A stretch of 5,712 nt of DNA, taken from a virus. The notes below the pieces were generated by a model that searched no databases, had not been told where the DNA came from, and worked only from the letters and a program-made list of their open reading frames with translations. The stretch spans positions 1-5,712 of IMG/VR virus record IMGVR_UViG_3300045988_000103; one strand, written 5' to 3'. Position numbers and translations under genes: made by a program. Positions 2,645 through 5,712 of this stretch are shown here, one piece after another. The first letter of the stretch is position 1; each line of letters starts with the position of its first letter.

Positions 2645-2680
2645 AGCCCAGTACCTATCAAGTAAGGTACTGGGCTTTTG
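2645..2680 (+). terminator. Rho-independent terminator after VP4
   Basis: A perfect 11-bp stem, agcccagtacc (2645-2655) with ggtactgggct (2666-2676), has a 10-nt loop and runs into tttt (2676-2679). It begins 12 nt after the VP4 stop. Confidence 0.75.
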
Positions 2681-2731: not shown

Positions 2732-2781
2732 ACGCACATGCGCACACGCGCGATAGCGCGCACGCGCGCACGCGCGATATA
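2732..2781. repeat. GC-rich alternating purine/pyrimidine block (two 21-nt CG/CA runs, each ending in ata), with internal 8-mer tandem gcgcgcac x2.6
   Basis: 2732-2752 acgcacatgcgcacacgcgcg and 2756-2776 gcgcgcacgcgcgcacgcgcg are strictly alternating Pu/Py. cacgcgcgata occurs at 2745-2755 and 2769-2779. The block is self-complementary (multiple CGCGCG registers) and sits in an otherwise A-rich genome. Confidence 0.9.
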
Positions 2782-2795
2782 ATATTAACTTGTTG

Positions 2796-2810
2796 TAGTA
2801 GTAGTAGTAG
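2796..2810. repeat. (TAG)5 trinucleotide microsatellite
   Basis: ttg tag tag tag tag tag agg, read directly. Confidence 0.95.
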
Positions 2811-2814
2811 AGGC

Positions 2815-2989
2815 TGTGGAAAAGTTGAAAAGTAATAAATTTTAACGATGAAACGAAAATTAAAAGAGAAATACACTGTTGAAAGTTTTGTTGAAAACTT
2901 GTTGAAATGTTGAAAGTTCGTCAAAATGACGAAAATCATTGTGCAACATTTTGTGGAAAACCTGTTGAAAGTGTTGAAAGTGTTGAAAA
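2815..2989 (+). repeat. Array of ten same-orientation TGT(T/G)GAAA iteron-like repeats (candidate protein-binding sites, DnaA-box-like on the complementary strand)
   Basis: TGTGGAAAA is at 2815 and 2952. (A)GTTGAAAA is at 2823. TGTTGAAA is at 2877, 2889, 2900, 2908, 2963, 2972 and 2981. Spacings within clusters are 8-12 nt. I did not see the exact 8-mer TGTTGAAA anywhere else in the window. Confidence 0.85.
2922..2953. other. Inverted repeat between the two main iteron clusters, with a nested mini-hairpin
   Basis: caaaatg (2922-2928) pairs with cattttg (2947-2953), a 7-bp stem with an 18-nt loop. An alternative 5-bp hairpin is cgtca aaa tgacg (2919-2931). Confidence 0.5.
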
Positions 2990-2996
2990 CGCGCAC

Positions 2997-3037
2997 AGCG
3001 CTAAAAAGGAATGGATTAAGCCGCATTCCGCTGCGCT
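2997..3037 (+). other. Compound stem-loop, a candidate ssDNA structural element
   Basis: The outer stem is agcgc (2997-3001) with gcgct (3033-3037). The inner stem is ggaatg (3008-3013) with cattcc (3024-3029), with a 10-nt loop. Confidence 0.55.
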
Positions 3038-3048
3038 CCATACGGCAA

Positions 3049-3062
3049 GGCGCTAAAGCGCC
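3049..3062 (+). other. Short GC hairpin ggcgc-taaa-gcgcc
   Basis: A 5-bp perfect stem with a 4-nt loop, read directly. Confidence 0.5.
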
Positions 3063-3118
3063 ACTCAAAACAAAGGAGCAGGAAAAAAGTTACAAATTAT
3101 TACAATACTCAAAAAATA

Positions 3119-3147
3119 TTGAAAAAGCTATTGACACAGGGTAGAAT
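3119..3147 (+). promoter_or_regulatory. Sigma70-like promoter candidate driving the peptidase-to-VP1 gene block
   Basis: The -35 is TTGAAA (3119-3124), the spacer is 17 nt, and the -10 is TAGAAT (3142-3147). It is preceded by an A-rich UP-like tract and lies 45 nt upstream of the first downstream ATG (3192). The host sigma specificity is unknown. Confidence 0.45.
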
Positions 3148-3191
3148 AGAATTGAACCTAACGAACATGACCGAGAGAAAGGTTGACAAAA

Positions 3192-3581
3192 ATGATTAAA
3201 AGCTACATAATGGACACAGACGCAAACGAAAAAGTAGGGCAGCACTTCAAAGTGCGAGAATTTGCGTGCAAAGATGGTTCGCAAGTCGTATTCATCGATA
3301 GCTATTTAGTATCAATCCTGGATATCCTTAGAAACCAAGTCGGAAAACCGGTATACATAAACAGCGGATACAGGACCCCGACAAGGAATAAAGAAGTAGG
3401 CGGTGCAAAGTACTCATACCACATGCGAGGAATGGCGGCAGACATTCGGATTGAAGGCATGACCGCAAAAGAAATTGCCAACAAACTGAACAAAATCATT
3501 CCGTCTGGCTGCGGCATCATCGTGTACAAAACATGGGTACACATTGACACGCGTACCAAAACCTACAGAAAGGGGGTATAA
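3192..3581 (+). CDS. Peptidase M15 family zinc D-Ala-D-Ala carboxypeptidase / endolysin-like cell-wall hydrolase (Peptidase_M15_3-like), 129 aa from ATG 3192
   Basis: The motif layout is F.V.EF.C.....V........L..LR...G.PV.I.SGYR.P..N..VGG...S.H..G.AADI......VHID.R. The predicted Zn ligands are His (SYH), Asp (AADI) and His (VHID). The SD gagaaagg (3175-3182) lies 9 nt before ATG 3192. The track start at 3183 is a TTG lying between the SD and the ATG. Confidence 0.85.
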   Translation: MIKSYIMDTDANEKVGQHFKVREFACKDGSQVVFIDSYLVSILDILRNQVGKPVYINSGYRTPTRNKEVGGAKYSYHMRGMAADIRIEGMTAKEIANKLNKIIPSGCGIIVYKTWVHIDTRTKTYRKGV

Positions 3582-4060: not shown

Positions 4061-4300
4061 ATGGAACATCTGTATTATGGCATCTGGGACAACGTAGCAA
4101 AATGTTATGCATGGGTAGGTGAAAGCAAAAACAACGAAACGTTCGCACGGATGTGCAACGTGATGCAGAAAGACAAGAGCACGTTCATCGGGCAGTCCCC
4201 GAACGATTACGTAGGCTATAAACTGGCAACGTTTGAAGATGAAACCGGCGAATTCCAGAACATGAACGATAAGGCATGGGAGGGTAAAGCGGATGAATAA
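4061..4300 (+). CDS. VP5: VP5-like nonstructural protein (gokushovirus ORF5 family), 79 aa
   Basis: The pattern LYYGIWDNVA..Y........N...FARM............P.DY..YKLATFEDETGEF resembles the small ORF5/nonstructural proteins of gokushoviruses (..Y...D..A..........N...A.R.F........P.DY.L..LG.FD..TG.). The SD gaggag (4045-4050) lies 10 nt upstream. It sits immediately upstream of VP3. Confidence 0.65.
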   Translation: MEHLYYGIWDNVAKCYAWVGESKNNETFARMCNVMQKDKSTFIGQSPNDYVGYKLATFEDETGEFQNMNDKAWEGKADE

Positions 4301-4691
4301 ACGATACGAAGAGGGGCGCGAGCCCTTCTTTTCGAATCCAGGAGAAACAGAGCGAAAACAGTACGTCTGGGCAAAAGACAAAGAAGGCAAAGAATACCTG
4401 CAAGAAACCGAAAGTATCGACATTCAAGCAGAGATTGAAAGCTACGCAGATGAATGCGATATCAAAAACATTGTGAGAAAGGCAAGTTTCGACCCGGAAT
4501 TTATGAAAAGCCTGTCACAAGGCGCTATGGAAGGCACAGAGGTAGACATCACCGAATTTCCGAAGAATATCCACGAATATCATCAGATGGTAGCAACAGC
4601 ACAAGCTAACGCAATGAAGCTCAGAGAACTGGAAGAACTGAACAAAGAGCAGAAAAAAGAACCAGTAGAAGGGAGTAAAACAGAAGAATGA
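4293..4691 (+). CDS. VP3: VP3 internal scaffolding protein, 132 aa
   Basis: It sits directly upstream of VP1 with an ATGA overlap (4688-4691). It is acidic. The block DIQAEIESYADECDIKNIVRK followed by D.TEFP....E....V..A resembles the gokushovirus/Chlamydia-phage scaffold family. The SD ggagg (4279-4283) lies 9 nt upstream. It overlaps VP5 by 8 nt. Confidence 0.8.
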   Translation: MNKRYEEGREPFFSNPGETERKQYVWAKDKEGKEYLQETESIDIQAEIESYADECDIKNIVRKASFDPEFMKSLSQGAMEGTEVDITEFPKNIHEYHQMVATAQANAMKLRELEELNKEQKKEPVEGSKTEE

Positions 4692-5712
4692 ACAGAAACA
4701 ACGAACGACACTTTCTGCAAATTCCAGAAATGCACGCAAGCCGAACACGGTTCAACAGAGACCAAACGATTCTAACCACATTCGATAGTGGTAAGCTTAT
4801 CCCGTTCTTCGTAGATGAAGTACTGCCAGGCGATACCTTCCAAGTGGATACCAGCGCAATCATCCGCATGACCACACCAAAGTATCCGGTGATGGATGAT
4901 GCATTCATCGACTTCTACTACTTCTATTGTCCGAACCGTATCCTATGGGACAATTTCAAATATTTCATGGGAGAAGTGGAAGATACACCATGGATGCCGA
5001 CAAAAACGTACAGCGTACCGCAAATCGAAGTAAAAAGCACTGGAGAAAATCCAAGAGAAAAAACAATTCTAGACTACATGGGAGTGCCTACGAAAGTAAA
5101 AGGAAACTTCAAAGTAAACGCACTGCCTATCCGGGCATACGTAAAGATTTGGAACGAATACTTCCGAGATCAAAACGTAGGTAACGCGGCAACATCAAAA
5201 AATAATGATGGAAATGTCGTGTACACACGCAACAACGGAACAATGGAAAGCATCTTAAAGAATGCATACACCGGAGACGAATGCTTGCCCGTCAACCGTT
5301 TCCACGACTACTTCTCAAGCTGCCTTCCCTATGCTCAGCGTGGGCCGGATGTAAGCATACCCATGACCGGCAACGCAGCAGTAAACATTTTCGAAAACCA
5401 AGCGCTAACCCAAAAAAAGAGTACAAACGAAGAAATTTACCTAAACAGCCTAGTAACCGGAACAAACAGCGCAGAACCATTTATTGTAAACTGGCCAACA
5501 GAAGGAAACAAAAGCTACCCAGCACTGATAAACGGAGCAGCTACAACCAAAGGAACAACAGTAAGGGATGGATTTTTAGGGGTTGACCTAGGCACAGTAA
5601 CCGCGACCACCATTAACGAACTGCGAAACGCAATCGCGGTACAGCAGTACTATGAAGCGATGGCACGAGGTGGCAGCCGTTACCGTGAACAGGTACAGGC
5701 TCTGTGGAATGT
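4688..5712 (+). CDS. VP1: Major capsid protein VP1 (F-like), N-terminal 341 codons. It is open at the window end and continues at position 1/3.
   Basis: I translated this by hand with no stop from ATG 4688 to 5712: MNRNNERHFLQIPEMHASRTRFNRDQTILTTFDSGKLIPFFVDEVLPGDTFQVD...PKYPVMDDAFIDFYYFYCPNRILWDNF...ILDYMGVP...ALPIRAYVKIWNEYFRDQN...INELRNAIAVQQYYEAMARGGSRY. These are canonical microvirus capsid motifs. The last 18 codons are the same sequence as the ORF at 3-704. Confidence 0.95.
   Translation, partial: MNRNNERHFLQIPEMHASRTRFNRDQTILTTFDSGKLIPFFVDEVLPGDTFQVDTSAIIRMTTPKYPVMDDAFIDFYYFYCPNRILWDNFKYFMGEVEDTPWMPTKTYSVPQIEVKSTGENPREKTILDYMGVPTKVKGNFKVNALPIRAYVKIWNEYFRDQNVGNAATSKNNDGNVVYTRNNGTMESILKNAYTGDECLPVNRFHDYFSSCLPYAQRGPDVSIPMTGNAAVNIFENQALTQKKSTNEEIYLNSLVTGTNSAEPFIVNWPTEGNKSYPALINGAATTKGTTVRDGFLGVDLGTVTATTINELRNAIAVQQYYEAMARGGSRYREQVQALWN
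5658..5712. repeat. Right copy of the 55-nt terminal redundancy (identical to 1-55)
   Basis: Exact match to 1-55 by direct comparison. Confidence 0.97.

Follow-up and report, generated by a model that had tools for sequence, protein, structure and literature searches.

Microviruses are the textbook case of rolling-circle replication driven by a Rep protein, with a hairpin signal for priming of the complementary strand. In phiX174 the textbook solution is a PriA-type (n') complementary-strand origin (cited in PMC9865509), and the microvirus paper that cites it still assumes a hairpin-based complementary-strand signal (PMC9865509). In the basal unwinding system (BUS) of bacterial origins one or more DnaA boxes are followed, after a spacer of at most 16 bp, by at least three DnaA-trios with the consensus 3'-GAT-5' and the minimum form 3'-NAN-5' (PMC8287927). 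Starting at the boxes, DnaA forms an oligomer along the trios, and the strands come apart as a result (PMC8287927, PMC6669920), and in Bacillus subtilis distal DnaA boxes act at variable distance and in either orientation via a loop (PMC6669920). Here we analyse the IMG/VR virus record IMGVR_UViG_3300045988_000103, a gokushovirus sequence of 5712 nt (the whole stretch is called the window below). Between the gene of its Rep protein VP4 and that of an M15 peptidase lies a module of about 213 bp (2778–2990, plus strand, delimited by blastn against relatives), which contains ten repeats in one orientation. We consider it probable that these repeats are DnaA boxes of the host type and that the module copies the layout of a host origin, acting as a host-oriC mimic that opens the duplex replicative form (RF).

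The pattern TGTKGAAA has nine exact matches on the plus strand of the window (starting at 2815, 2877, 2889, 2900, 2908, 2952, 2963, 2972 and 2981), none elsewhere in the 5712 nt and none on the minus strand. Dinucleotide-preserving shuffles contain 0.65 matches on average and four at most, and 0/200 of them reach nine. The tenth repeat (AGTTGAAA) lies on the plus strand inside 2815–2989 like the other nine; it appears as GTTGAAAA at 2824 and is best read as AGTTGAAAA at 2823–2831. The first two repeats form a tandem pair (TGTGGAAAA at 2815–2823 and AGTTGAAAA at 2823–2831, plus strand), which reads TTTTCAAC-TTTTCCACA on the minus strand. The four repeats starting at 2877 to 2908 make up cluster II (2877–2916, plus strand) and the four starting at 2952 to 2981 make up cluster III (2952–2989, plus strand). 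Start-to-start spacing is 9 nt in the pair (8 nt when the 9-mer reading at 2823 is used for the tenth copy), 12, 11 and 8 nt in cluster II and 11, 9 and 9 nt in cluster III. An original prediction, made from the sequence of the window, had proposed ten same-orientation repeats at these positions with 8–12-nt spacing, to be counted against shuffled sequence; the exact-match count bears out the arrangement and the shuffles confirm the enrichment. The central dyad that it described is indeed present between clusters II and III (TCGTCAaaaTGACGA at 2919–2933, repeat families I13 and I15, within the spacer 2917–2951), but it is not conserved among relatives. This spacer is 10 nt shorter in three related loci (L030, L045 and L060) and is therefore not coding.

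Directly adjoining the first two repeats there is a (TAG)5 run at 2796–2810, which the original prediction had overlooked, as it had the 4-nt spacer and the AT-rich end described below; with these elements the region has the make-up of an unwinding module of the origin type. It forms the end of seven in-phase xxG triplets on the plus strand (2790–2810; TTG TTG TAG TAG TAG TAG TAG), of which the last five fit the DnaA-trio consensus 3'-GAT-5'. A run of three or more TAG triplets occurs once in the window; any such run was present in 26 of 2000 shuffles, and a triplet run adjoining a box in 0 of 2000. The triplets are separated from the first box by a 4-nt spacer, AGGC (2811–2814), and past their far end there is an AT-rich stretch, ATATAATATTAAC (2777–2789), a candidate unwinding element. 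On the minus strand, positions 2831–2778 read TTTTCAAC-TTTTCCACA-GCCT-(CTA)5-CAACAAGTT-AATATTA, and both order and polarity are as in the host origins described below. In terms of the BUS, where boxes within two mismatches of the E. coli consensus or of that of the species are expected, TTTTCCACA (2823–2815, minus strand) is one mismatch away from TTATCCACA; five TAG trios stand on the right strand, 4 nt and 12 nt from the boxes, i.e. within the 16-bp limit; and AT-rich DNA follows the triplets, being shorter than in host origins.

The identity of the repeat was studied in 185,579 bacterial and archaeal species, each represented by one genome, which was scanned for three TGTTGAAA copies in close succession. 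Among the matches listed there are many contigs of Oscillospiraceae, Ruminococcus and related Clostridia, and no microvirus proteins are encoded at these bacterial repeat loci. Ten listed loci contain dnaA, and in nine of them the repeats are beside or around this gene. Specifically, in L142, L089 and L094, where Pfam confirms dnaA with dnaN or yidC adjoining, dense clusters with repeats on both strands are found upstream of dnaA and between dnaA and dnaN, which is the usual position of the chromosomal origin in Firmicutes. The commonest 9-mer in nine dnaA–dnaN spacers is TGTTGAAAA (= TTTTCAACA), with 68 copies against a single canonical TTATCCACA; the box of the phage module is therefore, as TTTTCAACA, equal to the dominant repeat in putative host origins. 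The original prediction had regarded TGTGGAAAA as the true DnaA box and TGTTGAAAA as one mismatch away from the consensus. The relationship must be reversed, as TGTTGAAAA/TTTTCAACA dominates both the host spacers and the phage modules, while the DnaA-box assignment as such has been strengthened.

Eight of the nine dnaA–dnaN spacers end in the same way: one or two boxes, 4 nt, triplets and AT-rich DNA; in the ninth (L131) the stretch ends short of this point. The triplets are (CTA)4–5 in five of these spacers and looser TTA/ATA/CTA runs in L117 and L119. One host origin ends in TTTTCAACAgTTTCAACA-CCCC-CTACTACTACTACTA-AT, and CCCC, GCCC and TACC are among the 4-nt spacers. The tandem boxes of the phage at 2815–2831 and their orientation toward the triplets match the dnaA–dnaN origins of L094, L089, L104 and L170. 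Capture of a host-origin fragment as such was rejected, the likeness being at the motif level, with a longest match of 37 nt over the box–spacer–triplet core.

The position of TTTTCAACA around dnaA strongly suggests that it is the DnaA box of Ruminococcus/Oscillospiraceae. The dnaA regions of L142, L131, L094, L170, L104 and L089 indicate that these bacteria apparently use TTTTCAACA instead of TTATCCACA, and we found no description of this variant in the literature. A related form, TTTTCCACA, which is the form of the boxes at 2815 and 2952, is a DnaA-box consensus published for cyanobacteria (PMC4674748); the same paper also counts TTATCAACA among DnaA boxes (PMC4674748). The DnaA recognition helix reads RDHSTIVY in the six hosts with the densest TTTTCAACA origins and RDHTTVIH in B. 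subtilis. In the numbering of the equivalent E. coli residues, these changes affect positions 435, 438 and 439, all of which belong to the base-contact positions (PMC5043019), and such changes fit an altered box. Ruminococcus/Oscillospiraceae-like Clostridia are the probable hosts of the phage. Many Oscillospiraceae contigs also contain a lone box triplet, TGTTGAAAanncTGTTGAAAnTGTTGAAAa, with 12/9 spacing, located away from dnaA in the stretch scanned (L113:6318, L122:3908, L139:428, L143:4847, L151:7818, L153:3796, L156:3716 and L154:1507); this layout matches cluster III of the phage.

If the module is a mimic of the host oriC, the copied layout would comprise two distal clusters of four boxes, the tandem pair, the 4-nt spacer, five trios and a GC-clamped AT-rich end, and it would act on the double-stranded RF. 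Host ATP-DnaA would fill the boxes, oligomerise from the tandem pair onto the triplet (TAG) strand and melt about 35 bp (2777–2810). The opening would admit the host helicase-loading and priming machinery, and RF replication would start there or be licensed. Clusters II and III would match the distal boxes of B. subtilis that work via a loop. What the sequences show is how the module is laid out, that it agrees with host origins, how it is conserved and that it depends neither on the Rep type nor on orientation; from this we infer DnaA binding, DNA opening and its sequel. An oriC proper lies on the chromosome, usually beside dnaA/dnaN, and is the unique origin of its replicon. The module is located between VP4 and the M15 peptidase gene of a microvirus, and we therefore speak of an oriC mimic and not of an oriC.

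The module is widespread. A DNA search with the intergenic region matched 52 gokushoviruses in GenBank, and the best shared part was 2778–2990 even where the remaining phage sequence was too diverged to align. The array is also found in 80 IMG/VR relatives wherever the locus extends that far, and a pattern scan added at least 120 further IMG/VR contigs, nearly all of 5.3–6.2 kb. Among 153 unique modules the median number of same-strand boxes is nine (range 5–11), and opposite-strand boxes are rare. Boxes are spaced by 8, 9, 11 or 12 nt, with 10 nt occurring once, and the two box types amount to 933 TGTTGAAA versus 145 TGTGGAAA. The alignment of related intergenic regions that had been suggested as a check of the repeats shows conserved box columns and spacing classes over the 153 modules, with variable linkers and a variable central dyad; cluster III is the best-conserved part of the array.

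Constraint is equally evident at the triplets. Of 127 unique phage contexts, 116 have CTTGTTG followed by the triplets, whose number is exactly five in 115 of the 116. The spacer between triplets and boxes is 4 nt long in 106 of these contexts and 3 nt in 10, and its sequence is free (AGGC, GCAA, AGGT, AGAC, AGTA, GGTA, GTTC and others). The 14 nt past CTTGTTG have a median AT fraction of 0.93. The three box-proximal triplets are TAG in every relative examined, which is partly forced by the search pattern; the fourth triplet counted from the boxes is variable, and the two conserved TTG triplets preserve the xxG phase of the trios. This pattern, in which triplets, spacer length and boxes are kept and linkers are free, fits a spacing-dependent protein–DNA machine.

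The same pattern bears on the possibility that the array is a DnaA sink or regulator. By binding host DnaA on the multicopy RF it would postpone initiation in the host, release genes from DnaA control or couple the nearby phage promoter to DnaA levels, with no DNA opening and no start of replication. Cloned DnaA-box clusters inhibit initiation in B. subtilis, and datA titrates DnaA in E. coli. With ten boxes per genome, whose DnaA-box identity is supported by the host spacers, and with a −35 region in the promoter at 3119 that resembles the box (TATTGAAAA), some titration can be expected. On a molecule present in many copies, an array of this kind could not avoid this side effect, and to this extent the titrating sink considered in the original prediction is retained. 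However, titration needs no triplets, fixed spacer or AT-rich end, and these are among the most constrained features. A datA-like locus would be a cluster of boxes that binds DnaA and has no unwinding element; the module has the box cluster and also a conserved element of the unwinding type. In addition, the module is not tied to one promoter, as it changes both its intergenic region and its orientation. Simple DnaA titration is therefore less likely than an oriC mimic, and we regard a function limited to it as unlikely.

The orientation of the module is not fixed. Exactly the span 2778–2990 is inverted in place in L017, L024, L054 and L070, with both flanks unflipped according to blastn, and the breakpoints fall at the GC-rich block 2733–2776 and at CGCGCAC at 2990. 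In GenBank, modules inverted relative to the genes were found after VP4 in KT264800 and MG945867, between VP2 and VP4 in KT264784 and MT121961, and after VP2 in KX513876; MT135268 and MT135258 were ruled out, as these records had merely been deposited in reverse. Strict-pattern loci in direct and inverted orientation relative to the genes number 146 and 31 (82:18), a few contigs being counted twice. Among the inverted loci there is a clade with a VP4 just 37% identical to that of the window. In the inverted loci the flanks are up to 94–98% identical to those of direct loci and the re-flipped modules 76–81%; near-identical flanks around diverged modules point therefore to cassette replacement and not to recent flips. 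The module behaves as an exchangeable cassette with breakpoints in GC-rich palindromic boundaries. An inverton was rejected, given that the flipped modules are diverged, the boundary repeats are short and of the CGCGC type only, and there is no recombinase gene.

Exchange of the cassette is informative with respect to iterons for VP4, another option of the original prediction. Direct repeats in the intergenic region beside a Rep gene would suit iterons, which co-vary with their initiator. The box sets are, however, unchanged across cassette swaps between backbones, the same boxes accompany VP4 proteins that are 37%, 45–48% and 85–95% identical to VP4 of the window, and they are found in chromosomal origins of bacteria, at loci that contain no microvirus gene. 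Rep iterons are, in our opinion, hardly credible as an explanation and were rejected.

The original prediction had also considered a minus-strand origin in which DnaA boxes are presented on single-stranded (ss) DNA hairpins. More generally, DnaA might bind the incoming strand, either as in the ABC primosome or as a filament on TAG, and prime the minus strand. The TAG strand is the coding, presumably packaged, strand in 146 of 177 loci. Moreover, in 26 of the 153 modules a single inverted box (TTTTCCACA) is located at the end remote from the triplets, and in the single strand this box could pair with a direct TGTGGAAAA box; the four such modules inspected by eye (L203, L205, L206 and L209) are all inverted relative to the genes. 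Against this, a scan of both strands found no complementary box in the single strand of the window, and hence no duplex box is possible there, contrary to what an ABC-type site with its box held double-stranded in a hairpin would need. The predicted ssDNA fold (minimum free energy and centroid, z = −1.7) contains neither boxes nor triplets in its paired parts, and in 31 loci the module is on the opposite strand. Finally, published BUS activity requires a double-stranded box beside the triplets (PMC8287927). A single-strand origin is thus very unlikely, and from the two orientations, the presence in two intergenic regions and the unpaired boxes in ssDNA we infer that the module acts on duplex DNA.

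A further possibility is that the DnaA-opened bubble exposes a nick site for VP4 near AACTTG/TTGTTG (2787–2795). The module would then be the whole portable origin of the phage, a complete rolling-circle origin at which host DnaA melts the duplex and VP4 nicks in the bubble beside the triplets. Nucleases of the HUH type need a single-stranded substrate, AACTTG equals six of the seven bases of CAACTTG, which we take to be the phiX174 cleavage heptamer, and CTTGTTG directly 5' of the triplets, found in the 116 of 127 phage contexts mentioned above, is absent from host origins. The conserved core is nevertheless TTGTTG and not AACTTG, with variants TTTGTTG, GTTGTTG and ATTGTTG, and AACTTGTTG recurs at 2896 as an ordinary box linker (family D7). 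Both observations weaken a Rep nick site at AACTTG. TTG TTG keeps the xxG phase and could therefore represent two degenerate trios. If the module were a whole origin, the displaced and packaged strand would follow its orientation and not that of the genes, and since about 18% of loci have a flipped module, antisense DNA would be packaged by roughly one in six of these gut gokushoviruses. We consider both the nick site and a whole portable origin of this kind quite improbable. In a milder version the RF would be kept as a DnaA-licensed minichromosome, which would explain the long-term carriage of microviruses in the gut.

Factors other than DnaA, or DNA curvature, might be considered as well. 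The repeats contain TTGAAA, as does the −35 element of a real promoter, and could be sigma decoys; a host response regulator for direct repeats might bind them, and sites of WalR, PhoP and Spo0A presumably resemble the 8-mer at one mismatch; and short A-tracts every 8–12 nt might curve the DNA. None of this accounts for the bacterial genomes in which the repeat is clustered about dnaA together with triplets. The TTGAAA copies are not followed by a −10 element, for which reason a promoter array was rejected too, and spacings of 8, 9, 11 and 12 nt, almost never 10, suit in-phase bending poorly. This group of explanations is highly unlikely, and the operator for a host regulator that the original prediction had listed becomes unnecessary. 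Spo0A, WalR and PhoP boxes and a Xer/dif-like site were dropped after the dnaA-linked clusters had been found. A hidden gene was rejected: ORFs of 72 aa (plus strand) and 113 aa (minus strand) over the array have no Pfam or PHROG match, the spacer between the clusters varies by 10 nt among relatives, and the module occurs in both orientations. The region gives no Rfam match at E <= 1 and contains no tRNA.

Several points weigh against the module being an oriC mimic. Its AT-rich end of about 13 nt is GC-clamped, unlike the longer AT tracts of the hosts, which makes it uncertain whether a helicase could be fully loaded there. By the prevailing view, a microvirus requires only Rep together with factors of the host for elongation and priming. 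The repeat itself served to retrieve the host loci, so that the taxon sample is biased, with dnaA position and triplet runs unselected, and the host box is recognised from its position around dnaA. The 82:18 bias indicates that orientation could matter more than we assume. Classical gokushoviruses (phiMH2K, Chp2 and SpV4) have no module, and an ancestry common to all gokushoviruses was rejected for it on this ground.

As regards the rest of the genome, protein families (Phage_F capsid, Rep, Chlamy_scaf, ORF5 and M15 peptidase) identify the window as a gokushovirus, 77–81% identical to gokushoviruses of the human and pig gut. Positions 1–55 are repeated exactly at 5658–5712, and the window is therefore a complete circular assembly of 5657 nt. 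VP1 is encoded at 4688–5712 and continues across the circle junction to 704, VP2 at 745–1617, VP4 (Rep protein) at 1614–2633, the M15 peptidase/endolysin at 3183–3581, VP5 at 4061–4300 and VP3 at 4293–4691. A perfect 12-bp hairpin followed by TTTT (2645–2676, plus strand; repeat family I6 and predicted fold) is terminator-like and likely ends the VP4 transcript, and a promoter of the sigma-70/sigma-A type (TTGAAA, 17 nt, TAGAAT; 3119–3147, plus strand) precedes the peptidase and late genes. Lying between the two, the module is therefore in DNA that is probably untranscribed. The −35 region of this late promoter (3113–3128, AAAATATTGAAAAAGC) is 81% identical to a box plus its flanks (family D5), and since TATTGAAAA at the −35 is one mismatch from the box, DnaA could in principle touch the late promoter.

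The left boundary of the module is the GC-rich block at 2733–2776, which consists of overlapping palindromes with mostly alternating purines and pyrimidines (repeat families D1 and I1–I4) and probably limits the extent of DNA opening. The alternation gives it a Z-DNA-like composition. The segment 2634–2800 folds with z = −4.1. Between the VP4 terminator and this block there is an exact tandem duplication, TCAGTCTAT TCAGTCTAT, at 2701–2718 (family D11). On the right, outside the module, the hairpin-rich flank 2990–3066 (plus strand; GGAATG..CATTCC and GGCGCtaaaGCGCC) is 95–99% identical among relatives and retains its orientation where the module is flipped. Its predicted fold is modest (z = −1.1), but it is a better candidate for a single-strand signal than the module, and it may be that signal or the Rep site.

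Similar elements were noticed outside the microviruses. Dense two-strand clusters of TGTKGAAA are present in L114, L155 and L190 (Mesoaciditoga), L148 (Athalassotoga), L088 and L120 (Anaerolineae) and L135 (Eubacteriales). The clusters of Thermotogota and Chloroflexota have no dnaA in the stretch scanned, and they may be origins with the same box type in unrelated phyla. Under a strict pattern no microviruses with modules of the canonical TTATCCACA type were found; the matches are large contigs without a microvirus protein. On such IMG/VR contigs (L352 at about 12,780, L336 at about 1,210, L328/L337/L348, L344, L346 and L347) the layout is AT-rich DNA, (TAG)3–5, 4 nt, TGTGGATAA TGTGGATAA and further box clusters. 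They have no dnaA match in the stretch searched, and L352 and L336, the two analysed for this, carry phage-like genes (cell-wall hydrolase, DUF1064); origin mimicry may occur in dsDNA phages too. A box/triplet module of the TGTTGAAA type with boxes on both strands is located at 2054–2313 of L269, a 23.6-kb IMG/VR contig without microvirus genes in the stretch searched, and could be either a binned host origin or another mobile element with the same trick.

The basal unwinding system itself is already known; what appears to be new is a host-origin unwinding module carried by a microvirus. As the original prediction had supposed, the array is outside the textbook description of Microviridae: full-text searches of the literature brought up no link between Microviridae or gokushoviruses and DnaA boxes or trios. 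If our interpretation is true, the host initiator DnaA joins the replication model of a large and abundant group of gut gokushoviruses, and phage replication is tied to the growth state of the host. The box variant points to a testable host for phages that so far lack one, namely Oscillospiraceae/Ruminococcus-type Clostridia with RDHSTIVY-helix DnaA. As a natural origin of about 213 bp in 153 variants, the module would show which features matter (triplet number, the 4-nt spacer, spacings of 8, 9, 11 and 12 nt). A by-product is the candidate DnaA-box variant TTTTCAACA in an important group of gut bacteria.

Among described systems, the incC BUS of B. subtilis (DnaA-boxes #6/#7 plus trios; PMC6669920, PMC8287927) has the same order and polarity as the phage module. 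Both have two boxes in tandem, separated by a short spacer from three or more 3'-GAT-5' triplets on one strand, with AT-rich DNA following the triplets and further boxes upstream. The phage module differs in its location in a 5.66-kb ssDNA phage and not beside dnaA/dnaN, in its box variant TTTTCAACA/TTTTCCACA, in the short GC-clamped AT-rich end and in two extra conserved TTG triplets. The predicted origins of L142, L094, L089, L104, L170 and L186 share with the phage the 8-mer/9-mer box, the mix of 8–12-nt spacings, same-strand box runs, the 4-nt spacer and (CTA)4–5. Unlike the phage module, these host origins are large: each spacer holds 15–22 boxes, which stand on both strands, another cluster precedes dnaA, and the AT tracts are longer. 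The likeness of motifs is not accompanied by a long homologous stretch. At the assembly site of the ABC primosome (Masai and Arai), the DnaA box is reportedly located in a hairpin stem on ssDNA. As in the module, DnaA would be recruited by a small replicon for priming, but the ABC site needs a duplex hairpin box on a given strand, whereas the boxes of the module are unpaired and occur in either orientation. The PriA site of phiX174 likewise acts in cis from an intergenic region of a microvirus and attracts host proteins of replication restart or initiation; it is, however, an ssDNA hairpin read by PriA, with neither DnaA boxes nor triplets. In P1 oriR, pSC101, F and RK2 the Rep is encoded by the element and binds separate iterons, with help from one or a few DnaA boxes. 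These mobile elements also use host DnaA at the origin, whereas in the phage all repeats would be DnaA boxes and its genes include none for an initiator that binds iterons. Engineered M13-oriC chimeric phages were used to reconstitute oriC replication and are the nearest laboratory analogue, being ssDNA phages whose RF carries a DnaA-dependent origin. In contrast to these laboratory constructs with E. coli oriC, the gokushovirus module would be a natural, miniaturised and widespread counterpart.

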